Positions 4,011 through 22,193 of a DNA stretch of 64,000 nt are shown one piece after another. A model generated the notes under the pieces. It was not told the origin of the DNA and made no database searches. It saw only the letters and a program-made list of their open reading frames with translations. Made by a program: the position numbers and the translations under genes. Origin of the DNA: Nitrospirota bacterium (lineage in GTDB: Bacteria > Nitrospirota > UBA9217); contig CAVTRN010000001.1 of the NCBI GenBank assembly GCA_963737155.1, forward strand, positions 1,568,001 to 1,632,000. Direction: 5' to 3'. Each line of letters begins with the position of its first letter. Position 1 is the first letter of the stretch.

Positions 4011-5326
4011 AACAGCAGAGGGGCACACCCCTACTTTCCATGTTTTATGGTATCATTGGTCTACAGTAATTAAAACAATATTAGACAAGCAATCATTGTG
4101 TATCACATTTATCACATTTGAATGTTCATTTTGTCTTTGAGACTAAGTACAGACGACACATATTCGTGTTTACGGAATGCTTAAGTTTATAGGACTTAAG
4201 CATGCTTGTGCGCCATCAGATGCTGGATAATCGTTCCTGTCTTGCGTTTGTATCTTTGCTGGCAGCTATATATCCTTGCGCAAAAAGAAGTGATTATAGA
4301 GGGTCTTCATGCTCCTCGACAATAAGAGTAACTGATTTATTTTGCGAAAAATGCCGCCATTTTTTTGTGATTCGTTGATGCCGAAACCAACTTCCGCAAC
4401 AGCGTATGAGACTCTATATCCCTTGCAGTTCAGTGATCAAGATGCCGTTGTTGTTGCGATTGTAGATTATTATTCTCTGGTGAAGACACCCTGCAGCAAA
4501 TTGCCATATTTACTTCGAAAGTCTGGACGAACGTATTCCCGCGTAATTACTGAACCGGCATGATAATAGTTCCATGCGGTTTTGAAAGTTAACATAATTT
4601 TTTTTCGCATAATGACGCAGATTTATATGCCATAATATGGCACGATTTTTCTCGAATTGCAAATGCATTGTCGAAGTTTAGCAATGCTCTCCAAAACTTA
4701 TGGTCACTTGCTAATAAATCTGTCATTAACAGCGGTAAAAGCTCAGCAGTTGTTGTATGTAACGAGAAAAGAACGCTGTCGTTAAAATGCGCTTTAAATT
4801 GACGATTAAAATAAATGGTGATACCATTGTTTTGTACGGGAACATCCATATTGTCCTCCATTTTTTTGGTTTTAATTTCTCCAAAACTATTGCTACTATA
4901 AAATGAAGGGCAATTTATGCTACTTTATATCCAAGCCTTTTTCCACTCTACTAGATTTAATGCGTTGTAGTCATCAGCCCGTTCTGTTTTGAATTGGGTT
5001 ACAATGCCGAAAATGACCCCGGAAGTCTGGGCTGAAAAGTTTGGGTCTGCTTTATCAGACAATCTGAACAGGGAGGATGAGGAACCTTCCACATCCATTC
5101 AACTCCCTGAACATGTGACAAACCACGAGATCAATCAACATGATGTGGGAAGGACAATGTTTGTCTTTTGGAGGACATCGCAGCCGGAAGGTAGAAGGCA
5201 TTGAGGTTCCCTGGCGCCGGTTTATCTGCGTAAGGGACGTCTTCAGGAAGTGCGGAATCAGGCCATTCAATGAAGAAATACGTGTAAATTGGCTAGCATA
5301 TTTTGATCGAGGAAGGGAATCCATCC

Positions 5327-7090
5327 ATGCTGGGTGATGATCGAAGACTAAGATATAGAAGCGTTAGCACTGTCATTTGTCTCATATTATTTCTCGCGGG
5401 AAGCGCTATTGGCCTCTATTACTGGCTTGTCGCAGGCCGCGTTCCGGGGCAGGTGATCCTGGAAATAGACTTTGATAAAGGGATAGCCGAATATGTGCCA
5501 GATGATCCCCTTGCCCGTCTTGTGCTAAAGCAAAAAATTCATTTGCGTGACATTGTGGAAGCGCTGCAGAAAGCCGCGACCGACGATCGGGTCAAGGGGC
5601 TTGTGGCACGGGTTGGCGGCTCGACGCTTAAACTGGCAGGAGTACAAGAAGTGCGTGATGCAGTCGTCTCCTTCCGGGCCACAGGAAAACCCGCGATCTG
5701 CTATGCCGAAACGTTCGGTGAGTTTGGGCCGGGAAATGTCTCGTACTATCTTGCGACGGCCTTTGACGAGATCTATCTGCAGCCGTCCGGCGATGTGGGG
5801 CTCACGGGGCTTATCTACGAACAGCCCTTTATTCGGGGAACATTGGATAAGCTGGGCATCGTTCCACGTGTTGATGGCAGAAAAGAATATAAAAGTTTTC
5901 GGTATATGTTCACGGAAACCAAATATCTGCCGCCGCATCGCGAAGAGATTGTCCAGGTGATGGACTCCCAGTTTTCACAGATCGTCAAAGGGATTGCAGT
6001 TTCGCGCAAGAATTCAGAAGATAACGTACGGTTGCTAGCCGACAGGGGGCCCTTCGCTGGTCAGGAGGCTGTGGATGCAAAGCTTGTGGACGGGCTCGCG
6101 TATCGCGACGAAGTTTACGATAAGATCAAGGCCAAAGCGGGAGCGAAGGCCGAATTTCTCGATCTGGCTGAATACCTGAAACGAGCGGGAAGCCCGAACG
6201 AAAAGGGAACGACCGTTGCCCTCATATACGCAGTGGGTGCGATTGAGCGCGGAAAAAGCGGTTACAATGCAGTAACCGGCGAGATTGTTTTGGGTTCTGA
6301 TACTATTTCCTCGGCGCTTAGAGAGGCGGCGAAGGACAAGGACGTCAAGGCCATACTGCTCAGGATTGACAGCCCTGGCGGGTCCTACGTTGCGTCAGAC
6401 ACGATCTGGCGCGAGACAGTAAAAGCCAGGAAAGAGGGTAAGCCACTTATCGTGTCGATGGGAGACGTGGCCGCTTCGGGCGGTTATTTCATCGCTCTGG
6501 CTGCGGACACAATCGTTGCCCAGCCCGCGACGATTACGGGATCCATCGGCGTGTTTGGTGGGAAGTTGGTGACCACGGGCTTTTGGAAAAAACTTGGCGT
6601 AACATGGGACGAAGTGCACACGAGCCAGAACGCCGACGCATGGACCATGACCAAGGATTTTACACCTGCACAGAAAGCCCGCTTCGAGGAATGGCTCGAC
6701 CGGGTGTACGGTGATTTTACGTCAAAGGTAGCCGAGGGAAGAAATCTTACCAAAGAAGCTGTGGAGAAAATTGCAAAAGGCAGGATCTGGACTGGAGAAG
6801 ATGCGAAAAAAAACGGGCTTGTTGATGAACTCGGAGGTTATCCCATTGCGCTGAAGAGTGTGCGTAAGGCACTGAAACTCTCCGATAATGCTCTGATCAA
6901 ATTGAAAGTATATCCTGAGCAAAAATCGTTGCTCAAGCTTCTTTTGGAGCTGAAGTCTGCCACAGGCGAAGACGAAGATTCAACTGCCATTACTCGCACG
7001 CTCAAGGAACTTCAACCGATAGCAAGAACTATCAAGACACTTGGATACTCCTCACAATCTGATATACTAAGGTTGCAGGAATTTGAATAA
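5327..7090 (+). CDS. sppA: Signal peptide peptidase SppA, 67K two-domain type
   Basis: N-terminal TM segment, YYLATAFDEIYLQPSG, LRIDSPGGS, VAASGGYFIA and TITGSIGVF motifs. Confidence 0.92.
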   Translation: MLGDDRRLRYRSVSTVICLILFLAGSAIGLYYWLVAGRVPGQVILEIDFDKGIAEYVPDDPLARLVLKQKIHLRDIVEALQKAATDDRVKGLVARVGGSTLKLAGVQEVRDAVVSFRATGKPAICYAETFGEFGPGNVSYYLATAFDEIYLQPSGDVGLTGLIYEQPFIRGTLDKLGIVPRVDGRKEYKSFRYMFTETKYLPPHREEIVQVMDSQFSQIVKGIAVSRKNSEDNVRLLADRGPFAGQEAVDAKLVDGLAYRDEVYDKIKAKAGAKAEFLDLAEYLKRAGSPNEKGTTVALIYAVGAIERGKSGYNAVTGEIVLGSDTISSALREAAKDKDVKAILLRIDSPGGSYVASDTIWRETVKARKEGKPLIVSMGDVAASGGYFIALAADTIVAQPATITGSIGVFGGKLVTTGFWKKLGVTWDEVHTSQNADAWTMTKDFTPAQKARFEEWLDRVYGDFTSKVAEGRNLTKEAVEKIAKGRIWTGEDAKKNGLVDELGGYPIALKSVRKALKLSDNALIKLKVYPEQKSLLKLLLELKSATGEDEDSTAITRTLKELQPIARTIKTLGYSSQSDILRLQEFE

Positions 7091-7192
7091 TTCTGAGAAG
7101 TTGAAATCACAATGCGGTGATGTATGCCTGCTGGTTTTTTTAGAGATGAATTCACTTTACCACATGTACTTCACTGATTAAAGGAGTAGGCC

Positions 7193-8134
7193 ATGAGATT
7201 TTTGCTGAGAGCTCTTTTCGTATTGACGTTGTTGACCGTACTTTCCGGGTGTTTTAATATCAAGGTCAACGTTATCCCAGAGGTGCTGCCTCTAAAGGAA
7301 CGATTAATCTCGGGCGAGGGTAAGGACAAGATTGTTCTCATCGATATCTCCGGGGTCATCACGAGCGCGGAAGACGGTTCTTTCTTAAGTACGACGAAGG
7401 AACCGGGGATGCTAGCCCAGGTACGCGAAGAACTCGATCAGGCGCGCAGTGACAAGAACGTCAAGGCCGTCGTGCTGAGAATCAATAGCCCCGGAGGCGG
7501 CGTCACAGCGTCGGATACACTCTATCATGAAATAAAAAAATACAAGAAGGAAACGGGCGTGAAGGTCGTCGCCCACTTTTTGGATATGGGAACGTCGGGA
7601 GCCTACTATGTCGCTCTCGCATCCGACCAGATCATAGCGCAGCCTACAAGCATTGTCGGCAGCATCGGAGTGACCATGCTCCGTATAGATGCAACAGGAC
7701 TGATGCAGAAGATAGGTGTTCAGGCGCTGCAGATTTCGTCGGGAGAATGGAAGAGCATGGGTTCCCCCTTCCGTCAAATCTCGCCGGAGGAAACGCAGCT
7801 TTTTCAAAACATGATCGATAATCTCTACGGTAAGTTTGTGGATGCTGTCGCCGATCAGCGGAATATGGTGCCTGACCGGGTTCGGGAAATCGCTGACGGG
7901 CGTATTTATACAAGCCAGGAGGCCAAGGACAAAGGCCTCATCGATGGCATTGGTTACCTCGAGGATTCCCTGGAAAAAGCGAAGAGCCTGGCGAATGTGA
8001 CGAAGGCCCGAGTCGTGACCTATTCCCGTCCCGGTGAATATCGAGCCAATATCTATTCAAGGAACCTCATCAACATTAATGTCGGAGAATTTGCTAGGCC
8101 AGGCGTGACTTTCGCATACGTGTGGTTTCCCTGA
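7193..8134 (+). CDS. sppA: Signal peptide peptidase SppA, 36K type, predicted lipoprotein
   Basis: Lipobox LSGC; LRINSPGGG, GTSGAYY and GSIGV motifs; AAGGAG RBS. Confidence 0.9.
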   Translation: MRFLLRALFVLTLLTVLSGCFNIKVNVIPEVLPLKERLISGEGKDKIVLIDISGVITSAEDGSFLSTTKEPGMLAQVREELDQARSDKNVKAVVLRINSPGGGVTASDTLYHEIKKYKKETGVKVVAHFLDMGTSGAYYVALASDQIIAQPTSIVGSIGVTMLRIDATGLMQKIGVQALQISSGEWKSMGSPFRQISPEETQLFQNMIDNLYGKFVDAVADQRNMVPDRVREIADGRIYTSQEAKDKGLIDGIGYLEDSLEKAKSLANVTKARVVTYSRPGEYRANIYSRNLININVGEFARPGVTFAYVWFP

Positions 8135-8345: not shown

Positions 8346-11300
8346 TTACTTTATCTCCTGTTCCTTTTCCTTCGGCAATATTGGCGAAATAATATCAACA
8401 GGTAGCTTGATGAAGGTCTCCAGGAGATTCATGATCCGCGTGCCTACAGCAGTGGGAGAGAGAAAGACGACGTCGGGGTTCGCGAGATCGCCGGAGACAT
8501 GGACCGGGATCGAGATGAGCGTGCCGCCCATGATATTGCCGATAAGAGGGGTGTTCCGAATGACCCAATTAATCGTTGAAAAAGGCGCCACGAGGACGGT
8601 GAGGTCCATCTGTTTCTTCACGAGATTTATCTCGCCTTGAGCGATGAGGTCCATCGATTCCCCGCCGATAAATGCTTTATCAACGATAAATTTCCCCTTA
8701 TGGATATTCCCGCTCACTATCAAGGAATGATAGGGGAAGCCGTTTCCCCCCAGATCAGGGGCCTGACCACGAAATACTTCAAGCACGCTCAGAACGGAAA
8801 ATATTTTTTGCAGGGTAGGATAGCGGTAAATTCTTCCATCCATAGCCTCAAAATCCACTCTGCCTTCTAGGGACGAGAGTAGATCCTCACCCGTTCCCTG
8901 CGCCTGGATTTTCGAACTTAAGTCAAAGGTTCCGCTAAGATGAACTTCCTCGCCGGCCAGACAGTCGATAGTGGATGCAAGAGGTTCTTTCTTTGCCACA
9001 GGAGTAAAAGCAAAAGATATGCTTTCCTGGGAGATTAGAATTGTCCCTGGCATTGAAAGTCCGCAGGTCTTGGTGTTGGTAAATTTCATATTTACCCCGC
9101 CCGAGTTCACGGTTATGACAGCTTGAGCAGGAGCAAAGGTAAAGCGTCCGAATTTAACATACGCCGAATTGGCACGAAGGTTCCCCTCTATGGGCGGCAC
9201 GGGAAAAGATCTGACTTCTTGACCGGTGTTTCTTTTGCCGAGCTGCTCTAGGACTTGTTGGATAGCTTGTATTTCAATGCCGTCAGAGGTGAGGTCCATG
9301 TTGAAAGCGATTCCCGCCTCCGAGGTTGCTGCAACGCCTGCCATGGAGTAATGATTCTTGCCCCATGTAACATCGGCGGAGTCGATGGTGAGTACGTGGT
9401 TGTCGGCATGGGCAGCGAATTTGTCTACTGTAATCGGGAGCGGCATGCTCCAGGGGATGGAAATGTTGTCACCAGCAAGTTTCCCCTTTACTCGAGACTG
9501 AAGCGGTTGATCCGCATGGATCACCGCGTGAATATCGCCATGCATTGTCCCTTTGCCGAAGGTTCCCTGTTTGAATATTCTCCCCAAAGTCGCCTGCGCA
9601 AGAAGGCCCGAGAAGGAAACGTCCACTACCTGCTTTTGCCAATTCATGGTCATGGACGCCCGTGTCTCTTGATCCGTGATCGTTAGTCTGTGGATAGCGA
9701 AATCCGCGCCGTGCTGTGAAAGATTTATGTAAAGCACTGGCCCGTTTGCCACTGATGCATTTCCCGTAATCGATATGCCTGTTGTTCTCCCCCAGACTAG
9801 ATGGCAATCGGTAAGAGCAAGGGGAGCATTGATCATGAGCGCAGGTGGTAGCTCGAGTTGGTCAAAAACCCAATCAAGAGTTTTCCTGCCTGCTCTCCCG
9901 CTCAAGGTAAGGTCGATGCGACGCAAGGTGTTGGTAATGCGGCTGACCAGGGCCGTTCCGGTCATTGTCGAATCAAGAATTGTCGCCTCTTGCAGCCCGA
10001 AGGACAATTTATCGGGGACAAGACTGAAATTCCCTCTTAACAGACCGATCCGTCCCGGCAGCAAGGAAGAACTAAAAACAATTCGGTCAAGACTGCCGAG
10101 TGCGGAGATTTTCCATGTCTCGGGCCTGAACAGGGGTCCCTTGAAACTCATTGAGGATATGGTTATCATACCATCGAGCTCGTTTACGCCATGGAGAATT
10201 TTATACAATGAGTTGTACTTTGACCGCCATTGGAAAAATTCGCCAAGATGAATGATGGCTCCGCCGTCGAGAACCTCAAGGGCGGGTTCTTTGCGCCCCG
10301 TTATGCTCGCGGTAATATGGGACAGCGATGACTTGCCGAGGTGCACGGACGCCTCGGAAATGGTAATTTTATTCTCTTCCGCCATGAATTCTCCATTTAC
10401 AGCCAGGGGTGAGGGAAGACGAGAAGAGTTGACGACGATGTCTTTTGCTGCTCCCGCTATCTTCAGGCTCCACGCCGCGGGATGGAGAAGGGGGCCGCTG
10501 AGCCGAATCGATGACAAGGTGACCGTTCCAGCCAAGTCTTTTACCTCGTTCGAAAAGGTGCCCAACGTCTTGTACTTATTTTGCCACTGAAAAATCTCGG
10601 GAAGGTTGATCTCTGCGCGGCCGTTGTAAACGTCGAAGACTGGTGTCGTGCTCTCCACAATCCGGGCGGAAATTTGATCAAGAGATGACGCGCCCATGTG
10701 GACGGATAGCCCGGAAGCTGACAGCGTATTGTCGTCAATGACGAACCGGCTGCTGACGTACACGGGAGCAGGTATCCATGGCGATTCCGCGACGAGGCTT
10801 TTCACTTCACCCTCTATTTTTTTTCGCCATTCCTCGGGGCGGTCGACCGGTCCGCTGATCTGCATCGACGAGATGGTAAGAACGCCGCGTAGTGATCGAA
10901 CGTTTTTCAGCACGGGGATCAGGCTTTCCGAGGACGACAGCCAGGGATATATTTCATCGAGTGCAACCGTCGCGTGGCCTGACAAGACTTCCAGTTGGGG
11001 AATCCCGTTCCATGCCAGATTTGCGGAAAATCCGGAAAGGGAAGACCGGCCCATAGAAACAGTGAGATCCTTGACTCCCGAATTCACCTCATTAAAGGAA
11101 TAAGTCCCGCTGAGCAAAAAATTCCCCCACTGTTCAGTGGAAGCCTTGACGAAAATCTTCATATCGCCGGGGGGCGCGTTGAAATGCACGGTAACATTCC
11201 GGAGAGAGAGAACATCCTGGCGGCTTCCTCTAAATAGGAATTTGCCCATATCCATTTCCACGACAAGACCCGAGCCGATTGCCTGCAAATAAGCCAGCAC

Positions 11301-11720
11301 AGAGCGGATATTTTTTTTTGACTCCTCCAGGGATGGAAGTTCAGATGATGTCGACTCGGTGATCGTTGCAGGTAGGATGATTCTGACATCGGGCTTGATG
11401 ATCTGAATCCTCGAAAATAGAAGTTTGCCTTTGATGAGCGGCATGATTTGAGGATAAATGCTGAGCGACTGAAGCGATCCTCGGAAAGTCCTGGGATAGG
11501 CGAGGAGCATTTTCTTGATTACCACATGGGGACGGGGGAAGAGTGAAAGATCGATTCTTTCATAAGACATCTTTCCGCCGAGTTTCCTTGAAACGGTGTC
11601 TTGAATCCCGCTTTTCACTGATGCCGAATTCAAATAAATCGGAGTCACGATGAACGCTGCGACCATAAGAGCCATTACGATGCCTGAAGACAAGAGCAGT
11701 ATTTTTTTTCTGGTTGTCAT
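8346..11720 (-). CDS. AsmA/YhdP-like envelope-spanning protein
   Basis: N-terminal TM anchor, long beta-rich body, AsmA_2-like C-terminus (GRVDFEAMDG...PLIGNIMGG...VSGDLANPDV). Confidence 0.8.
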   Translation of the reverse strand: MTTRKKILLLSSGIVMALMVAAFIVTPIYLNSASVKSGIQDTVSRKLGGKMSYERIDLSLFPRPHVVIKKMLLAYPRTFRGSLQSLSIYPQIMPLIKGKLLFSRIQIIKPDVRIILPATITESTSSELPSLEESKKNIRSVLAYLQAIGSGLVVEMDMGKFLFRGSRQDVLSLRNVTVHFNAPPGDMKIFVKASTEQWGNFLLSGTYSFNEVNSGVKDLTVSMGRSSLSGFSANLAWNGIPQLEVLSGHATVALDEIYPWLSSSESLIPVLKNVRSLRGVLTISSMQISGPVDRPEEWRKKIEGEVKSLVAESPWIPAPVYVSSRFVIDDNTLSASGLSVHMGASSLDQISARIVESTTPVFDVYNGRAEINLPEIFQWQNKYKTLGTFSNEVKDLAGTVTLSSIRLSGPLLHPAAWSLKIAGAAKDIVVNSSRLPSPLAVNGEFMAEENKITISEASVHLGKSSLSHITASITGRKEPALEVLDGGAIIHLGEFFQWRSKYNSLYKILHGVNELDGMITISSMSFKGPLFRPETWKISALGSLDRIVFSSSLLPGRIGLLRGNFSLVPDKLSFGLQEATILDSTMTGTALVSRITNTLRRIDLTLSGRAGRKTLDWVFDQLELPPALMINAPLALTDCHLVWGRTTGISITGNASVANGPVLYINLSQHGADFAIHRLTITDQETRASMTMNWQKQVVDVSFSGLLAQATLGRIFKQGTFGKGTMHGDIHAVIHADQPLQSRVKGKLAGDNISIPWSMPLPITVDKFAAHADNHVLTIDSADVTWGKNHYSMAGVAATSEAGIAFNMDLTSDGIEIQAIQQVLEQLGKRNTGQEVRSFPVPPIEGNLRANSAYVKFGRFTFAPAQAVITVNSGGVNMKFTNTKTCGLSMPGTILISQESISFAFTPVAKKEPLASTIDCLAGEEVHLSGTFDLSSKIQAQGTGEDLLSSLEGRVDFEAMDGRIYRYPTLQKIFSVLSVLEVFRGQAPDLGGNGFPYHSLIVSGNIHKGKFIVDKAFIGGESMDLIAQGEINLVKKQMDLTVLVAPFSTINWVIRNTPLIGNIMGGTLISIPVHVSGDLANPDVVFLSPTAVGTRIMNLLETFIKLPVDIISPILPKEKEQEIK
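10040..11060 (-). repeat. Three tandem ~119-aa repeats inside the AsmA-like protein
   Basis: Units begin VSMGRSSL (~11060), VHMGASSL (~10703) and VHLGKSSL (~10346), 357 nt apart, sharing L.E...W, G..T.SS....GP..RP..W and S...P motifs. Confidence 0.8.
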
Positions 11721-14185: not shown

Positions 14186-14518
14186 CTATCGGATGTTTTC
14201 TATTGAGATCGTTCCTGAACCGAGGAGTCGTGAAAGAAGAATGTATCCGCCGCAGGGCCGGGCCTGTGGGTCCTGCGCAAAGTCGCAGTCATTCTCACCG
14301 AAATCACAGGCGCCGCACAGCACTCTTGCCATGAGATCAGGTGCAGCCTCATCGCAGTTTATAAGTTTTGCTCCCCCAGTGACTACAGCCTCGCCCGACC
14401 GTATTAATCGATCAACGATAAGAGCCCCCCTGCAGAGCATCTCTTCGTTTTTGCCCGGCTTGTAGTAGACGCAGTAAGGGAGACAAAGTACTCGAACCAA
14501 AGCTTCGTTTTTGGCCAT
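14186..14518 (-). CDS. Small Cys-rich protein of unknown function (putative metal or Fe-S binding)
   Basis: 110 aa with CLPYCVYY..LCRG and LCGACDF...CDF...PCGGY; divergent from the radical SAM gene. Confidence 0.7.
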   Translation of the reverse strand: MAKNEALVRVLCLPYCVYYKPGKNEEMLCRGALIVDRLIRSGEAVVTGGAKLINCDEAAPDLMARVLCGACDFGENDCDFAQDPQARPCGGYILLSRLLGSGTISIENIR

Positions 14519-14565
14519 GTTGTTTCATTATAACAAAAACAGGCCCTCGGTGCTATAATAACTTC
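14519..14565. promoter_or_regulatory. Back-to-back extended -10 promoters (leaderless or near-leaderless)
   Basis: Plus strand TGCTATAAT (14551-14559) lies 6 nt before ATG 14566; minus strand TGTTATAAT (14535-14527) lies 8 nt before ATG 14518; neither gene has an SD. Confidence 0.7.
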
Positions 14566-15696
14566 ATGAATTATTACCTGGCAAGACGGGCTGTTCTAAA
14601 ATGGCTTGAAAACCCTTCGGTGTATCAGCTTGCAAAAGATGAGCTGTACGAGCTCGATGACGAATCTTTTCGTTTCTTCCAAAATTGCTCTTCCAAAGAC
14701 GGGTGCTCATCAAAAAACAGCGCATTTGTCGATTACTGCGTAGAGGAAGGCCTACTCACCACGGAAAAAGTGTTTCATACAGGGTCTGTGGTCGAGCGCG
14801 CGCCGGTACCGTCCCTTCGCTATCTTGAACTCCAGATCACTGATGCCTGCAATCTTGCCTGCAAACATTGTTATATCAATAGCAGTCAACGCCATGAACT
14901 TTCGGCTGATGAGGTGTATTCCGTTTTAGGAGAGTTTCAGAATATGCAAGGTTTACGGGTCCTTATCACGGGAGGCGAACCACTTGTGCACGGGAACTTC
15001 GACGAGATCAATGAAATGCTCCCCGATTTCTTTCTTCGCAAGGTTCTTTTCACAAACGGAACGCTCCTGAAAAAAGACGGAATAAACACGCTGAAGTTCG
15101 ACGAATTTCAGGTGAGCATCGACGGCATGGAAGAGGCGCACGATTATGTTCGTGGACCGGGGACATTCAAACGATCGCTGAAGACGATACGACGTGCGCT
15201 TGATGCGGGGTTTGATGTCTCCATTTCAACTATGATTCACCGTAGCAACCTGTCGGATTTCGACAGTATGGAGCATATGTTCAAAACAATGGGGATAAAG
15301 GACTGGACCGTGGATGTGCCTGTTTCGGTCGGCCGTCTTGAGGAGAACAGTAATCTGATTATAAGCCCTGAAGAAGGCGGCAAGTATCTAGGATATGGGT
15401 ACGGCGGCGGTCTCCATTTGTCCAGCAAGGGGTTTGGTTGCGGATTGCATTTGATGTCCGTCATGGCTGACAGGAGGATCGCGAAATGCACGTTTTATCA
15501 TGATGAAGCAGTAGGTTCGCTGGAGCATGGCTTACGGGCTGCGTGGACGAAGATTCGTCCGGTATCTCTCAACGAGCTGTCCTGTGCCTGCGAGTACCGG
15601 GAAATATGCAGGGGAGGCTGTCGCTATCGGGCGGAAGTGCTGGAAGGAAAAGGAGGAAAAGACCTGTACCGGTGTATGCTTTATGGTATAATATAA
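14566..15696 (+). CDS. Radical SAM/SPASM protein with RRE-like N-terminus, putative peptide maturase
   Basis: CNLACKHC, ITGGEP and SIDG motifs; C-terminal SPASM-like Cys array (GCG..AKC..CACEYREICRGGC..YRC); N-terminal ~65 aa with LYELDDESFRFFQNC..FVDYCVEEGLL resembling a PqqD/RRE fold. Confidence 0.85.
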   Translation: MNYYLARRAVLKWLENPSVYQLAKDELYELDDESFRFFQNCSSKDGCSSKNSAFVDYCVEEGLLTTEKVFHTGSVVERAPVPSLRYLELQITDACNLACKHCYINSSQRHELSADEVYSVLGEFQNMQGLRVLITGGEPLVHGNFDEINEMLPDFFLRKVLFTNGTLLKKDGINTLKFDEFQVSIDGMEEAHDYVRGPGTFKRSLKTIRRALDAGFDVSISTMIHRSNLSDFDSMEHMFKTMGIKDWTVDVPVSVGRLEENSNLIISPEEGGKYLGYGYGGGLHLSSKGFGCGLHLMSVMADRRIAKCTFYHDEAVGSLEHGLRAAWTKIRPVSLNELSCACEYREICRGGCRYRAEVLEGKGGKDLYRCMLYGII

Positions 15697-15803
15697 CTCA
15701 TTCTATACTTCTTTCTCCTTATCCCTTTAAAGCAGAGTTTAAAAAGACTTTTTGGAAGATAACGTTGTTTCATCGATAAAAAATAAAGAAAGGAGGATAT
15801 CAT

Positions 15804-15866
15804 ATGACAATCAGAAAAGTGACGAAAAAAATGGCGGTAACCTGCAAATGCAAAAGCTCTTGCTGA
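15804..15866 (+). CDS. Putative RiPP precursor peptide MTIRKVTKKMAVTCKCKSSC (20 aa)
   Basis: AAAGGAGG RBS 7 nt upstream of ATG; basic leader-like N-half and CxCxxxC C-terminus; 107 nt downstream of the rSAM gene and followed by a terminator; below the ORF track cutoff. Confidence 0.75.
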   Translation: MTIRKVTKKMAVTCKCKSSC

Positions 15867-15894
15867 CGAAAAATCCTTCAAGGCATCAAACCAG

Positions 15895-15934
15895 AACGAG
15901 CTCGACAGACCACTGCCGAGCTCGTTATTATTTT
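15895..15934 (+). terminator. Intrinsic terminator after the peptide gene
   Basis: AACGAGCTCGACAG-ACCA-CTGCCGAGCTCGTT hairpin followed by ATTATTTT. Confidence 0.7.
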
Positions 15935-15993
15935 ATTAGTCTTATTTCCCAAGGGACGCGCCGACTCCTCCATTTATCCTGGCATGACCAATT

Positions 15994-16269
15994 TTAAGCG
16001 GTCTTCCTGCTGAAAACCTGCCGTTCTTCGAAGTTCCTGATGAACTGAGCGACCTGGATGCCGAGAGAAACGCACTTAATGCCATTCATGCAATCATCTG
16101 CGTCCTGCTTTTCGAGATGGGTGGTGAGTGTTTCTGTTCCCCGTTTGAAAGTCAGAATATAAGCATTGGTCTGTTCGTCAAAATTCAATCCCACAGAAAC
16201 CTTATGGTCTTCGATTTCCGGATACATTTCCCGAATTTTGTCTTCTAGTGCGGCATTTGTGAATATCAT
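15994..16269 (-). CDS. Hypothetical protein (91 aa)
   Basis: AAGGAGGG RBS before MIFTNAALEDKIREMYPEI; globular composition with CxxGxxC. Confidence 0.7.
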   Translation of the reverse strand: MIFTNAALEDKIREMYPEIEDHKVSVGLNFDEQTNAYILTFKRGTETLTTHLEKQDADDCMNGIKCVSLGIQVAQFIRNFEERQVFSRKTA

Positions 16270-16386
16270 TGTTCCCTCCTTCGTCCTTCGCTCAGTGAAT
16301 GGGAATCGAAGCATCGGCGCCGCCCTCAGGAAAGTCCTTTGCTGCCGATGATCCATTTTCGCGCATCGCGACAGAGAAAAGTGACG

Positions 16387-16875
16387 TCATCCGCCTTCTA
16401 CGATGCCCCGTTCCTCCCAGAGGAACCAGTTTCCCGTGTCCGAAAGGAACTGGTACGTGTTTGCAAAAATATCATAGTGCTGCTTTTCTTCTCGAATCAG
16501 GCGCCGGAACAGCTCTTTTTCTTTTTCTGTCTTTACCTGATTCAGCGTCTTTTCATAGAATTGCTTGCCCTCTTTTTCCATCTGCATGGCGATCTTGAAT
16601 GCTTCGAGTTCGTCCTGTGTCGCCTCAACTTTTTTCATCATTTCATTCTTCAGGGATTCAAAGATAGTCTTAACGCTGGTGATCGGGCTCACATCCTCGT
16701 GGGAGATGTTGAGACCCTTGATGATTTCTGAAATCATTTGCAGGTGTCGTTTCTCGTCTTCTGTTACCGATTCGAACATCTTTCTGCCGGCCGTGTATTT
16801 AGTTTTTCGCGCTGCTTCCATATAAAATGCTATTGCGTCAGTTTCCATCTTCTTTGCAATTTCGAGAGCATTCAT
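16387..16875 (-). CDS. Ferritin-like / rubrerythrin-family protein
   Basis: Paired E..FY and EKRH / EKQH diiron motifs; AGGAGG RBS. Confidence 0.85.
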   Translation of the reverse strand: MNALEIAKKMETDAIAFYMEAARKTKYTAGRKMFESVTEDEKRHLQMISEIIKGLNISHEDVSPITSVKTIFESLKNEMMKKVEATQDELEAFKIAMQMEKEGKQFYEKTLNQVKTEKEKELFRRLIREEKQHYDIFANTYQFLSDTGNWFLWEERGIVEGG

Positions 16876-17121
16876 CCCTTCCTCCTTGATGTAAAGCATC
16901 TAATGCTTGAGACATTTCACAGCACCGCAATAATTCTCTCTCGTGGGTTCTGCAGACGCGTTCCTCTACCCCTTCGCAATGCTGAATTAAGTATATCATA
17001 ATCAGAAAAAGGCATCAACGCGGCCCTGGACGGAACGAGAGAGAGGATGTAATTTTGTTCAGGCCAGTAAGGAGTTTCCCTTTCCGCTCGGATTGGGTTA
17101 GGAAGCAGCGACGGGCGCGGG

Positions 17122-18243
17122 CTACTTTCTCGGTTTTTCTCCAAAGACCTCTTTCACTTTATCGAAAAAACCTTTTGTGATCGGTGTTGCTCCATCCGTA
17201 TTTAAGCGGTCGAATTCCTGGAGCAACTCTTTTTGTCTTGCAGAAAGCTTGGTCGGGATTTCAACGATAATCCGGCAGAGCTGGTCTCCGGACCCCGAAC
17301 CGCGCAGATGGGGGAACCCCTTGCCTTTGAAGCGGAAAACATGTCCTGGCTGGGTGCCGGCAGGTATTTTTAATTTCGAGTTGCCTGTGAGAGTTGGCAC
17401 ATCTAGCTCGGTGCCCAAGGTGGCCTGGGTAAAGCTGATCGGAACTTCACAAACGACGTCCTGTCCTTCCCGTATGAACAGGGCATGGTCTTCCACCGTA
17501 ATAAACACGTAAAGATCTCCGGGAGGCCCCCCGTAGGAGCCTATTTCTCCCTCGCCGCTCAAACGGATCGTATTGCCGGTCTCGACACCGGGAGGAATCT
17601 TCACCGATAGGGTCCGTTCCCGTTCAATGCGCTTTTTCCCGTTACAGGCAGAGCAGGGGTCGGTGATTACCCTGCCTTCCCCTCCGCAGCGCGAGCAGGT
17701 ACGACTGATGCTGAAAAATCCCTGCTGTGTACGGATCTGTCCAGCTCCACGGCAGTTTGTGCAGACCTTGATATCGTCTTTTGATTTTGCGCCGGTGCCG
17801 TCACATTCAGGACAGCGTTCCCAGCGGGGAACCCGGATTTTTGTGGATGTCCCGAAGGCCGCTTCTTCAAACAAGATCTTGAGATTGTACCGTAGATCGT
17901 CACCGGCCGTTGCTCGCGCCCGACCACGTCCGCTGCCGAAGAAATCCTCGAAGATGTCACCGAAGATGTCGCCCATGCCCATCCCCGCGCCGAACCCACC
18001 AAAGCCCGGCCCAGTTCCCTGGGCACCCGGCGCAACGCCGTACTGGTCATAGTAAGCCCGCTTCTGCGGATCGGATAGGATTTCGTAAGCTTCGCTGATT
18101 TCTTTGAATTTTTCTTCAGCAGCCTTGTTGTCTGGATTCTTATCGGGATGAAATTCGAGTGCAAGTCTGCGGTATGCCCGCTTGAGCTCTGCGTCAGTGG
18201 CGTTTTTGTGAACACCGAGCAATGCGTAATAGTCCTTTGCCAT
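17122..18243 (-). CDS. dnaJ: Chaperone DnaJ
   Basis: J-domain HPD, G/F-rich region, four CxxCxG zinc-finger repeats; start at MAKDYY. Confidence 0.97.
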
Positions 18244-18382
18244 AAATCCTTTCAAATCGAAGCACATCATTTCGAGGAAGCAGCGACCCAAAAGGAAGCA
18301 ATACTGAAGAGGGCTGCTCCTCACGAGTGCAACCGAACTCTGTTTCGCGTCATCCTATGCGTTTCGATCCACTGCCGCGCTT

Positions 18383-18419
18383 AAAAAAAAGAGGATAACA
18401 GGCAATCCCCGTTATCCCC
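18383..18419 (-). terminator. Intrinsic terminator between dnaK and dnaJ
   Basis: GGATAAC..GTTATCC hairpin followed by a T-run on the minus strand. Confidence 0.6.
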
Positions 18420-18433
18420 GGAAAAAATCGCAG

Positions 18434-20359
18434 TTATTTCTTGTCCTTGTCCACTTCCTCAAACTCCGCATCCACGACTTTCTCACTGGATGCTTTCCCG
18501 TCGCCACCCGGTGCGGACGTGGAGGCGCCTGCGCCGGACTGGTCCTGCTCCCTGTTCATTTTGGAGTAGACTTCCTCCGCAAGCTTATGTGACGCTCGGG
18601 AGAGCTCCGCCACCGCCCGTTTGATGGCATCGATATCGCTTCCGTCCTTCACTTTCCGTGCTTCTTCGAGGGCCTTCTGAATGTCGGCCTGTTCGGCATC
18701 CGTCAGTTTGGAGCCGTACTCTGCAACGGACTTCCCCACAGAATACACAAGCGTATCCACTTCATTCCGAGCTTCGGCGAGCTCTTTCTTTTTCTTGTCA
18801 TCGGCGGCGTGAGCATCCGCTTCCTTGATCGCTTTATCAATCTCATCCTTGCTCATGCCCGATGACGCCGTAATTTTGATGGACTGTTCTCTTCCCGTGC
18901 CAAGGTCCTTTGCCAGCACGTGGACAATGCCATTCGCGTCGATGTCGAATGTGACTTCGACTTGGGGGATTCCGCGAGGTGCTGGCGGAATGCCCACGAG
19001 TTCGAATCGGCCAAGCGTCTTGTTGTCCGCTCCCATTTCGCGTTCACCCTGAAGCACGTGGATGGAGACCGCAGTCTGATTGTCCGAGGCGGTGGAGAAA
19101 ACCTGGCTCTTCTTCGTCGGAATCGTCGTGTTCCGCTCGATGAGGCGCGTGGTTACGCCTCCCAGGGTTTCAATGCCGAGGGAAAGAGGCGTAACATCGA
19201 GAAGCAAAACGTCCTTGACCTGGCCCGTAAGCACAGCACCCTGGATGGCAGCGCCGATCGCCACGACTTCATCGGGATTAACACCGCGGTGTGGTTCTTT
19301 CTTGAAAAATTCCTTCACCGTGGAAATGACCTTGGGCATGCGTGTCATGCCGCCCACGAGCACCGCTTCATTTATCTGGCCGATATTCTTTCCAGCATCG
19401 TTGAGCGCTTTCTTCACCGGTTCTATGCTCTTGCTGACGAGGTCATCAACGAGCTGTTCGTACCGAGACCGTGAGAGCTTGTACAGAAGGTGCTTCGGGC
19501 CTGTGGCATCGGCGGTAATAAAGGGGAGATTTATCTCAGTCTCCATGACTGTTGAGAGCTCTATCTTGGCTTTTTCAGCTGCTTCCTTGAGCCGTTGGAG
19601 CGCCATCTTGTCTTTCTTGAGGTCGATGCCCTGGTCCTTGAGGAATGAGTCGGCGAGCCACTTGATGACGCGGTCATCAAAATCATCGCCGCCTAGGAAC
19701 GTGTCTCCGTTAGTTGATTTCACTTCGAATACGCCTTCGCCCAGCTCTAGGATGGAGATGTCGAAGGTGCCGCCGCCAAGGTCATAAACTGCGATCGTCT
19801 CGTCCTTCTTTTTATCGAGACCGTAGGCTAGCGACGCCGCCGTTGGCTCGTTGATGATGCGCAGAACGTTCAGGCCCGCGATTTTCCCAGCATCCTTGGT
19901 GGCTTGACGCTGGCTGTCATTGAAGTAAGCCGGCACAGTCACTACCGCATCGATCACCTTTTCTCCCAAGTAATCCTCGGCGGTCTGCTTCATTTTTTGG
20001 AGAATCATCGCCGAGATTTCGGCAGGACTGAAAACTTTGCCCCGAACCTCTACATGGGCATCGCCGTTGGCTGCCTTCACAATCTTGTATGGAAGGTGTT
20101 TCATCGCGACCTGCACCTCGGCAGAATCGTATTTCCGGCCGATCAGCCGTTTGATCGAAAAAATCGTGTTATCAGGGTTCGTGATGGACTGCCGCTTGGC
20201 GATCTGGCCGACGAGCCGCTCGCCGCCTTCGGTAATGGCAACGACCGATGGCGTGGTCCTACTCCCCTCCGAGTTCGCGATTACGACCGGCTCCCCGCCT
20301 TCCATAACGGCGACGCAGGAGTTCGTAGTACCCAAATCAATGCCGATAACTTTTGCCAT
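18434..20359 (-). CDS. dnaK: Chaperone DnaK
   Basis: [17 protein letters not shown] and VNPDEVVA motifs. Confidence 0.99.
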
Positions 20360-20479
20360 GATATCCTCCTTGATTATCTCTGAATCAGAAAACGTGAATA
20401 CTCAGTTATCAGAATTCAGTTTATGAACTTCTCTCGACACGCCTCACATTCTAATCTTCGATGCCGGAGTTTTACTCAC

Positions 20480-21088
20480 TCAATCACAAATCGGCCCCGT
20501 CTCTTTCGGTGGGGGGTTTTTCGCGACGCCGACCTTCGCGTGGCGTATTATTTTGTCAAAATATAGATAGCCTTCCTGGAACACCTGCACGACCGTGTTT
20601 TCGGGCGCGTCCGAGGTTGGCACCTGCGTCACGGCGTCATGCTTTGCGGGGTCAAAGAGTTCCCCTGCAGCATTGAAGGATTTGATTCCGAATTTTTCAA
20701 GAATGTCTCGGAACTGTTTGTATACTAGCTCGACGCCCTGCCGCAGTCCTTCGTTCACTTCTCCTGTCTCTGATGACTCTGAAGCATGTTTCAACGCCAA
20801 ACCCAAGTGGTCCACTACAGATAGAAGTTCCAGCGCCAGCTGTTCGTTAGCATACTTACGGAAGTCGGCGAGGTCCCGTTGCATCCTTTTCCGATAATTC
20901 TCAAAATCAGCATAGGTCCGCAGGTATTTGCCGTTCGCTTCCGCCGCTTCCCTGGTTTTTTGTTCCAATGCCTGCGTCAATTTTTCGATGACTGTAGAGG
21001 ATTCCTCCTCCTGTGCCTTCGTCTCGTCATCCTCAGGAGGAACAACCTCGATGTCTTTATTTGATATATCGTCATATTTATTGCTCAT
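20480..21088 (-). CDS. grpE: Nucleotide exchange factor GrpE
   Basis: ADFENYRKR, FDPAKHDA and GY..RHAKVGV motifs; position in the operon. Confidence 0.96.
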   Translation of the reverse strand: MSNKYDDISNKDIEVVPPEDDETKAQEEESSTVIEKLTQALEQKTREAAEANGKYLRTYADFENYRKRMQRDLADFRKYANEQLALELLSVVDHLGLALKHASESSETGEVNEGLRQGVELVYKQFRDILEKFGIKSFNAAGELFDPAKHDAVTQVPTSDAPENTVVQVFQEGYLYFDKIIRHAKVGVAKNPPPKETGPICD

Positions 21089-22131
21089 CGGTCTATGCCC
21101 CTCTGAAATCGCTCATCCAGGAGTTTCGAAAGTAGCTTTGCTGTATAGTCGACGACCTGGATGACCTGTTTATAGTGCATTCTCGTAGGTCCAATCACGC
21201 CGAGGGTTCCTAGGACGTTTGCGCCTGTTTTGTAACTGCTTACGACCATGCTGCACCCCTGCATCTCGAAATAAGGGTTCTCGGACCCGATAAAGACTTT
21301 AATGCCCTTAGCTGCGACGCTCCATTCCAGGAGCTTGAGCAGTTTGTACTTGTCTTCAAAGGCTTTAAACAGCGCCCGCATTCTCTCGACGTTTGCGAAT
21401 TCCGGCGTCTCGAGAATCTGAGATGCTCCACCGATATAGATTTTTTCGCTGTCTCGCTCCTGTACCTCCCGGCTGGCGCGATACGTTTCGTCCATCAACT
21501 GCGCGAAAAGGAGTCTCTCTTCGCGTATTTTCTCGATCAGACTCTCCTTGATTTCGTTTAAAGTCCAGCGCTCTAGTTCCTCGTCGAGGTAGACGCTAAA
21601 CCTGTTTAGATCGTGCTGCCGGATGCTTTCGTCAAGTTCGATGAGCTTGTTCTGAACAATACCACTAGCGGTTACGAAAATGATCAGAACTTGTTTACCC
21701 CGCAGCCTCATGAACTCGATGTGCCGATATGTCGCTTCAGGCTCACTTGGAGCGACTACGACCCCCGCGCACCGCGAAAGAACGGCAAGAAAGCGGCTCG
21801 CTTCCTCCATCAGTTCATTCAGGTTTTCCCCACGCAGGCCAGGCGTCTGACGCAACTGATCATCAAGCTCCTCGGCCTCTTTCTCAATACTGATCAGACT
21901 GTCAATATAGTAACGATAGCCCTGATCTGTGGGTATCCTGCCTGCTGATGTGTGAGGGTGGGTCAGGAATCCGAACTCCTCGAGTTCTGCCATGATATTG
22001 CGAAGCGTAGCGGAACTGACACCGAAATCATACTGCTTAACCAGCACATTGGATCCAATAGGCAAACCGCTGGCAATGTAGCTATCTATAACAGCCTGGA
22101 GCACCTTTCTATTTCGTTCATCGAGATCCAT
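21085..22131 (-). CDS. hrcA: Heat-inducible repressor HrcA
   Basis: SSATLRNIMA, PHTSAGRIPT and VIGPTRMHY motifs. Confidence 0.97.
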   Translation of the reverse strand: MDLDERNRKVLQAVIDSYIASGLPIGSNVLVKQYDFGVSSATLRNIMAELEEFGFLTHPHTSAGRIPTDQGYRYYIDSLISIEKEAEELDDQLRQTPGLRGENLNELMEEASRFLAVLSRCAGVVVAPSEPEATYRHIEFMRLRGKQVLIIFVTASGIVQNKLIELDESIRQHDLNRFSVYLDEELERWTLNEIKESLIEKIREERLLFAQLMDETYRASREVQERDSEKIYIGGASQILETPEFANVERMRALFKAFEDKYKLLKLLEWSVAAKGIKVFIGSENPYFEMQGCSMVVSSYKTGANVLGTLGVIGPTRMHYKQVIQVVDYTAKLLSKLLDERFQRGIDR

Positions 22132-22193
22132 AAGCAATGCTTATTTATGCTAAAACAAGAAATCGTATCCTGATCATCTGTTAATTTTCTTAA

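Follow-up and report, generated by a model that had tools for sequence, protein, structure and literature searches.

A radical SAM/SPASM enzyme and a 20-codon cysteine-rich peptide gene form a conserved pair in anaerobic Nitrospirota and a candidate precursor/maturase system

The DNA analysed here is a stretch of 64,000 nucleotides (nt) from a Nitrospirota bacterium of the lineage UBA9217 (assembly GCA_963737155.1, contig CAVTRN010000001.1, positions 1,568,001 to 1,632,000 of the forward strand), referred to below as the window. It carries a gene for a radical S-adenosylmethionine (SAM) enzyme with a SPASM region, followed on the same strand by an open reading frame (ORF) of only 20 codons, rich in Cys and too short for gene callers. 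A reading made earlier from the sequence alone (hereafter the sequence-only reading) had proposed that the two belong together as maturase and precursor of a peptide made on the ribosome and then modified post-translationally (RiPP), with a RiPP recognition element (RRE) at the N-terminus of the enzyme. All of its coordinates hold, i.e., those of the enzyme ORF, the 107-nt gap, the Shine-Dalgarno (SD) site, the 7-nt spacer and the 20-codon ORF at 15804-15866. The features of the pair are as follows (coordinates in the window):

14530..14559, forward strand: promoter-like site of the enzyme gene, made up of ATAACA, 18 nt and a TG-extended TATAAT (10/12 matches)
14566..15696, forward strand: gene of the radical SAM/SPASM enzyme, a putative peptide maturase of 376 amino acids (aa) (P0001); its stop ends at 15696
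14566..14808, forward strand: N-terminal RRE-like domain of the enzyme, residues 1-81, with four short strands followed by two helices
14848..14871, forward strand: CxxxCxxC motif CNLACKHC (C95, C99, C102) of the SAM-binding 4Fe-4S cluster
15439..15675, forward strand: SPASM region, with C292, C308, C340, C342, C348, C352 and C370
15789..15796, forward strand: SD site AAAGGAGG of the peptide gene, followed by a 7-nt spacer and the ATG at 15804
15804..15866, forward strand: peptide gene of 20 codons, MTIRKVTKKMAVTCKCKSSC, plus stop (P0002)
15895..15938, forward strand: intrinsic terminator, with a 10-bp GC-rich stem (hairpin 15895-15926) and a U-rich tail

The small ORF varies among its relatives in the manner of a translated gene. 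Across 42 distinct copies of the peptide gene, our set for codon comparison, third codon positions vary at 19/19 codons, first positions at 10/19 and second positions at 11/19; over the last eight codons the corresponding counts are 8/8, 1/8 and 2/8. Pooled over these copies, the proportion of synonymous differences (pS) is saturated at 0.83, versus 0.16 for nonsynonymous differences (pN). At the protein level, the last eight residues are almost fixed as T-C-K-C-K-S/G-S-C-stop, the N-terminal half is conserved as a Lys-rich M-T-I-K/R-K-V-x-K-K, and the length of 19-20 residues is kept in all copies together with the stop. The peptide ends exactly at its third Cys in every one of the 42 copies and in all the peptide-like matches from metagenomes described below; the version in the window has three Cys and no aromatic residue. 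An SD site of the GGAGG or GGGGG type precedes each of the 42 distinct ORFs at the right distance. Saturated wobble positions alongside retained amino acids, together with an SD site before every copy, show the small ORF to be a protein-coding gene under strong purifying selection rather than an RNA element. The seven-residue core, CKCKSSC, of the sequence-only reading needs extension: its C-x-C-x3-C ending stands, and the conserved block is eight residues long (T-C-K-C-K-x-S-C). The peptide matched none of the families of Pfam and NCBIfam, and an exact look-up of two of its variants in about 15 billion predicted proteins found neither.

The peptide gene is linked to its enzyme well beyond the close relatives of the window. 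An ORF of the same type lies downstream of the orthologous enzyme in 19/20 related loci, and in a wider set of 45 enzyme loci, drawn from related genomes and a species-level genome collection (with some genomes reached twice), it is found 28-147 nt downstream in 36. The prediction that a short conserved ORF ending in C-x-C-x3-C should accompany homologous radical SAM genes is borne out in both sets. Among the rest of the 45, one peptide lies 2.2 kb downstream, six loci are without a peptide, one is truncated where its contig stops and shows the first 15 peptide codons, and one has just 149 nt of downstream DNA. Metagenomes scanned for nothing but the peptide pattern, in which the codon of one Cys was kept constant, yielded 80 loci with DNA, namely 44 peptide-like ones, 32 chance-like ones (with neither an SD site nor the N-terminal motif) and four with no in-frame stop; the enzyme is encoded directly upstream in 33 of the peptide-like loci, is missing over at least 600 nt in eight, and three are too short to tell. 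The two genes are still adjacent at 40-45% enzyme identity, a divergence at which no other neighbor from the window was found. Since their adjacency outlasts all other neighbors there, the conserved unit is the gene pair, not the neighborhood.

We further surveyed 401 genomes of the phylum for the pattern T-C-K-C-K-x-x-C-stop and for enzyme orthologs at an E-value of 1e-40 or better. The peptide motif is present in 151 genomes, nearly always as a single copy, as compared with one match for a reversed control pattern, and the enzyme in 162. Both genes occur together in 149 genomes, the enzyme only in 13, the peptide only in two, and neither in 237; in other words, 149 of the 164 genomes with either gene have both. 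Four of the 13 enzyme-only genomes do encode variant peptides missed by the pattern (two adjoining the enzyme and two elsewhere in the genome), and in two others the enzyme lies at a contig end. Neither gene occurs in certain large families of the phylum (0/76, 0/40 and 0/28 genomes), and in the partly positive families f11, f13, f18, f20 and f24 it is the same genomes that carry both. Where both positions were listed, the peptide is encoded directly downstream on the same strand in 116/141 genomes, as its description as a neighbor of the enzyme would have it; in the other 25, about 18%, it is a free-standing gene far from the enzyme or on another contig, and this part of the description has to be changed. 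These distributions show a pair held together across anaerobic lineages of Nitrospirota, with a coupling that, as judged from gene content and order, is strong but not absolute.

Some individual loci depart from the usual order. In two genomes, the enzyme stop is followed at 9 nt by an ORF resembling a SAM-dependent methyltransferase (by eye, with no family search), and the peptide is encoded elsewhere, behind a gene for an HD-GYP-type phosphodiesterase. A gene for a TPR lipoprotein follows the enzyme gene in two loci where the peptide is missing (L042 and L044), and follows the peptide gene where the enzyme is missing (family f16), a hint that enzyme, peptide and TPR genes ancestrally stood in this order and that the arrangement was broken in different ways. 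In the close relative G011 (C14:21736-22864, 84% identity), the enzyme is encoded in two frames (residues 1-83 and 66-376) with the peptide intact behind it, which suggests either a frameshift or an assembly error.

The enzyme itself has the hallmarks of its class. C95, C99 and C102 are invariant in all members of an alignment of 34 orthologs (39-83% identity), as are seven Cys within the C-terminal 90 residues, which form the SPASM pattern; both the CxxxCxxC motif and the SPASM-like Cys array noted earlier are therefore confirmed by these three plus seven invariant positions. With seven SPASM Cys instead of eight, one auxiliary-cluster site would be free to take up a substrate thiolate, as it is in CteB. 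Radical SAM (PF04055) is the sole Pfam domain, at 75.5 bits against a cut-off of 29.5. A search of NCBIfam returned 80 families at E-values up to 1, and none of the best 25 comes near its cut-off; the expectation that no named NCBIfam or Pfam precursor/maturase family would fit is in keeping with this. An AlphaFold2 model of the enzyme has a predicted local distance difference test (pLDDT) score of 91.9, and its best matches over the whole chain in Foldseek are SkfB (4.4e-16), CteB (9e-15) and SuiB (3e-13). In VIA-align, SuiB matches with a Z-score of 26.5 over 348 aligned residues, with positions 3-376 of the model placed on positions 2-439 of the chain and the N-terminal domain included, and for the core the Z-scores are 26.0 with SkfB, 23.9 with anSME and 23.0 with CteB (residues 82-375). 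Toward its C-terminus, the enzyme can be aligned with anSME, CteB and SuiB, and PqqE too is among the SPASM fold matches. By sequence, SkfB is the best match (E 1.5e-22), and the alignment with CteB starts at query position 16. In its modelled fold and its conserved Cys, the enzyme looks like a peptide maturase of the radical SAM/SPASM kind.

The extra N-terminal segment of the sequence-only reading exists, but the length of about 65 aa given for it is slightly short of the actual domain of about 80 aa. Residues 1-81, folded alone (pLDDT 86), match best the N-terminus of TigE (Z 7.5) and TbiB1 with its leader (Z 7.4; root-mean-square deviation 2.3; 65 residues aligned), then lasso B1 (Z 6.9), PqqD (Z 5.5) and the PbtF RRE (Z 5.2), along with McbBCD, MccB, ThcOx, LynD/TruD, SuiB and CteB. 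RRE proteins also head the Foldseek results for this domain, and Z-scores of middling size are what an alignment of 65 residues would be expected to give. This list is almost wholly one of RiPP recognition elements, and it upholds the proposed RRE at moderate strength, the support coming from the modelled fold alone and not from sequence.

The closest analog of the system is SCIFF with its maturase CteB (Tte1186), a ranthipeptide system of Clostridia. There too an enzyme with an RRE-like N-terminus, a radical SAM core and a seven-Cys SPASM region is encoded beside a short Cys-rich precursor, and there too a large anaerobic lineage has kept the pair, which comes without a protease or exporter of its own. 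SCIFF, CteB and Tte1186 are described in passages of PMC10114670, as are the links formed in this class, S-C-beta and S-C-gamma. However, SCIFF has about 45 residues and six Cys, whereas the Nitrospirota peptide has 19-20 residues and three; the enzyme shares only about 17-21% identity with CteB and comes from another phylum, and its gene and that of the peptide are unlinked in about 18% of genomes. The SCIFF maturase model is not among the best 25 of the 80 NCBIfam families matched by the enzyme, and no maturase model among these reaches its cut-off. Hence, with its 20 residues, three Cys and no NCBIfam match, we rejected membership of the peptide in SCIFF.

Comparisons with other systems are likewise partial. 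SuiB, the maturase of the SuiA precursor of streptide, is the best structural match over the whole chain, RRE included, but has 14% identity to the enzyme and makes a Lys-Trp carbon-carbon link; a cross-link of that type is disfavored here because the peptide has no aromatic residue. SkfB, the sactisynthase of the sporulation killing factor, is the best match both by sequence and by Foldseek. Unlike the enzyme, it has an N-terminal domain of another type and a much longer precursor, and the NCBIfam SkfB model gives 70.1 bits versus a cut-off of 300. A passage of PMC10114670 describes SkfB as forming a thioether from Cys to an alpha-carbon. The PqqE/PqqA/PqqD and MftC/MftA/MftB systems combine a short (20-30 aa) conserved precursor, a radical SAM/SPASM enzyme with an RRE and an intracellular product; PqqE and PqqD are among the fold matches of our enzyme and MftC is among its family matches. 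The RRE of those systems is usually carried by a protein of its own and additional enzymes come after, and their target residues (Glu/Tyr in the one and a C-terminal Val-Tyr in the other) are missing from the peptide. Identity with the mycofactocin maturase MftC (TIGR03962) was rejected at 81.6 bits versus a cut-off of 265, and the peptide ends in Ser-Cys, not Val-Tyr. The curated families with the highest scores over the radical SAM core are AhbD and NirJ, of heme b and heme d1 synthesis, respectively; these too were rejected, as their scores of 105.2 and 96.2 bits compare with cut-offs of 500 and 515.45 and cover residues 90-281 only, with the N-terminal domain outside. Finally, the build of the peptide can be likened to that of a methanobactin precursor (MbnA, acting with an MbnB/MNIO enzyme), a route that we rejected since PF05114 (MbnB/DUF692) has no match in the genome of the window, which is 100% complete.

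The signals around the two genes point to an arrangement of their own. The -10 box TATAAT of the promoter-like site ends 6 nt 5' of the enzyme ATG, and a promoter scan found no such site in the 107 nt between the enzyme stop and the peptide ATG; with a promoter-like site upstream of the enzyme and none in the spacer, the simplest reading is that both genes lie on one transcript. A strong terminator behind the peptide ORF had been noted earlier and is well supported, with a hairpin at -24.2 kcal/mol as compared with -12.1 +/- 2.5 for shuffles (z -4.83; none of 200 as stable); a simple terminator scan overlooked the hairpin at 15895-15926, whose loop is above the limit of that scan. Of 38 orthologous loci, 29 have the end of a -10-like hexamer 5-9 nt ahead of the enzyme's start codon, and none has an SD-like site there. 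Given a -10 box so near the ATG and the lack of an SD-like site, the enzyme mRNA is probably leaderless and translated at a low rate. The peptide gene, unlike the enzyme gene, has a near-consensus SD site, and weak translation of the one with strong translation of the other, if so read from these motifs, fits a pair of enzyme and substrate.

The remaining features of the locus are these:

14186..14518, reverse strand: gene of a Cys-rich 110-aa protein with no known family (P0122), divergent from the enzyme gene
15994..22137, reverse strand: downstream block on the opposite strand, encoding a 120-aa protein with no family, a rubrerythrin-like protein (16387-16899), and dnaJ, dnaK, grpE and hrcA (17122-22137)

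The 110-aa protein has eight Cys and adjoins the enzyme in 19/20 loci of the family; more broadly, its gene accompanies many orthologs of at least 54% enzyme identity, while at 53% or below it was no longer found next to the enzyme. Searches with it in Pfam and NCBIfam found no family, and searches of protein clusters and NCBIfam with both the 110-aa and the 120-aa neighbor gave either Nitrospirota clusters of hypothetical proteins or nothing. The 110-aa protein may be either a third component of the system or a mere syntenic neighbor. A conserved box upstream of the enzyme gene, ATTATAACAAAA, which reads TGTTATAAT as its reverse complement, ends 7 nt ahead of the start codon of the gene for the 110-aa protein; by these motifs, the two genes may both be leaderless, with back-to-back promoters in the 47-nt gap between them (14519-14565). 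The 120-aa protein, the rubrerythrin-like protein and the dnaJ/dnaK cluster were rejected as parts of the system, being syntenic only at enzyme identities of at least about 54%; the 110-aa protein extends beyond them without being universal. Further away, the window has two tandem peptidase S49 genes (5303-8134, forward strand) and a gene for a 1124-aa AsmA/YhdP-like protein (8346-11720, reverse strand), which are ordinary and unrelated. As had been remarked for the immediate surroundings, neither a protease nor an exporter is among the conserved neighbors of the pair.

By analogy with the systems compared above, we think it probable, though well short of certain, that the two genes are a precursor/maturase pair of the sacti- or ranthipeptide kind, which would install thioether rings in a small intracellular product. 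In the mechanism that we propose, a single transcript would carry the weakly translated leaderless enzyme gene, then the 20-codon gene with its near-perfect ribosome-binding site, and then the terminator. The RRE-like domain would bind the Lys-rich N-terminal half of the peptide, M-T-I-K/R-K-V-x-K-K, as a putative leader. A Cys thiolate of the T-C-K-C-K-S/G-S-C block would then coordinate the auxiliary cluster, while the 5'-deoxyadenosyl radical takes a hydrogen from a neighboring Thr, Lys or Ser carbon, resulting in one or more thioether rings from Cys sulfur to a carbon of Thr13, Lys15/17 or Ser18/19. The whole small product would remain in the cell and play a conserved part in its physiology, which is also what is suspected of SCIFF. 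An intracellular and physiological product is favored because no protease or exporter accompanies the pair and because the peptide stays almost constant across enzymes that have diverged to about 40% identity, a pattern of conservation like that of cofactor precursors and SCIFF, which the cores of antibiotic-type RiPPs do not usually have.

Several observations weigh against this proposal and have to be set beside it. The thioether chemistry is inferred from the modelled fold and the Cys-rich peptide; the curated families that score best with the enzyme are the heme-related AhbD and NirJ, even if far below their cut-offs; and the RRE matches of the N-terminal domain are middling (best Foldseek E 0.06 and Z no higher than 7.5, a range commonly met), with Pfam PqqD matching 0/34 of the N-terminal domains. 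As for the pairing, the genomes of one phylum are related rather than independent, so that the two-by-two table of the survey overstates the association. Four genomes that are 98-100% complete (G015, G019, G320 and G378) encode the enzyme, yet a search for the peptide motif that tolerated one mismatch found none in them; the motif is likewise missing from three further enzyme-only genomes of 65-93% completeness (G050 and G093 among them), and the two peptide-only genomes (99% and 94% complete) have only generic radical SAM matches at 32% identity. The genes are unlinked, i.e., far apart or on different contigs, in 25/141 genomes; in one entire family, whose genomes are small and complete, 120-680 kb separate the two.

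These points feed different alternatives. The unlinked genomes, in which the peptide gene lies behind unrelated genes, such as those for an HD-GYP-type phosphodiesterase, a trehalose-phosphate synthase or an uncharacterized 180-aa protein, would suit a peptide that is an independent tiny protein with a metal-binding or regulatory role, next to an enzyme that has another substrate, with their adjacency being no more than inherited gene order. The roughly six genomes with one gene only and the heme-pathway enzymes among the best family scores tend the same way. Yet this pair alone stays together when all other neighbors change, presence and absence agree in the five partly positive families, the enzyme has a domain of the peptide-recognition type, and the heme-family scores are about one fifth of the cut-offs; moreover, the SPASM enzymes of heme pathways are not known to require such a domain. 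We accordingly hold an independent peptide to be distinctly improbable. As for the still more skeptical view that the small ORF is untranslated, being an RNA element or a chance ORF 3' of the enzyme gene, the ORF is indeed too short for gene callers and two of its variants gave no exact match among the predicted proteins searched. However, the codon pattern contradicts this view, with wobble positions saturated and amino acids kept, as do the properly spaced SD site before every copy, the 19-20-codon length and stop kept throughout, and the fact that the ORF changes its place between genomes whole, SD site included; the view can be given hardly any credence.

A more serious alternative accepts the pair but changes its chemistry: the C-terminal Cys might undergo oxidative decarboxylation and cyclization, or the peptide might be epimerized or oxidized at Cys or Ser, to yield a small redox- or metal-active, cofactor-like molecule. 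MftC decarboxylates a C-terminal Tyr and anSME oxidizes a Cys or Ser side chain, and both of these, along with the epimerase EpeE/YydG, are among the sequence or fold matches of the enzyme. The invariable end of the peptide at its third Cys, its degree of conservation, which is that of cofactor precursors rather than antibiotics, and the lack of a protease or exporter with the pair are all what such chemistry would predict. Against it, the peptide has neither an aromatic residue nor a C/S-x-P/A-x-R motif, the MftC model reaches only 81.6 of the required 265 bits, and the top structural matches over the whole chain, SkfB, CteB and SuiB, are cross-linking maturases. On this evidence, we regard another chemistry as unlikely, if deserving of attention, and retain thioether formation as the preferred reading.

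Our search of the literature, by motif spellings in full text and by Thermodesulfovibrio and RiPP terms, found no papers on the pair; the supplementary tables of large RiPP-mining studies lay outside this search and could hold the enzyme cluster. We regard the pair as a new family in a known kind of system, distinguished by a very short and deeply conserved precursor. Of the sequence-only reading, the inferred genetic pairing survives, with the extent of the conserved block and the occurrence of the peptide as a free-standing gene among the points to be amended. For annotation, the gene can be found by the motif T-C-K-C-K-x-S-C-stop behind an SD site. The system is also small and directly testable, comprising two genes and a 20-mer that can be synthesized, and family f16 includes several single-contig genomes.

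More generally, new chemistry of ribosomal peptides is reached mainly through radical SAM/SPASM enzymes that have recognition domains, and the precursors of these enzymes are often missed for being too short to be called as genes. In this case, a gene of 19-20 residues is among the most conserved of its neighborhood across a class-level anaerobic lineage. One rather speculative and, in our estimate, improbable extension is that the pair makes a peptide-derived cofactor, or a factor for redox or metal handling, that belongs to the core physiology of anaerobic Nitrospirota. If true, it would join PQQ and mycofactocin as a case in which a ribosomal peptide is turned into an intracellular cofactor by a radical SAM/SPASM enzyme, and its precursor, of 19-20 residues, would be among the shortest known, with the invariant C-x-C-x3-C block, including its free C-terminal Cys, being put to use. 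Cofactor or not, the role of the modified peptide, like that of SCIFF in Clostridia, is probably physiological rather than antibiotic.

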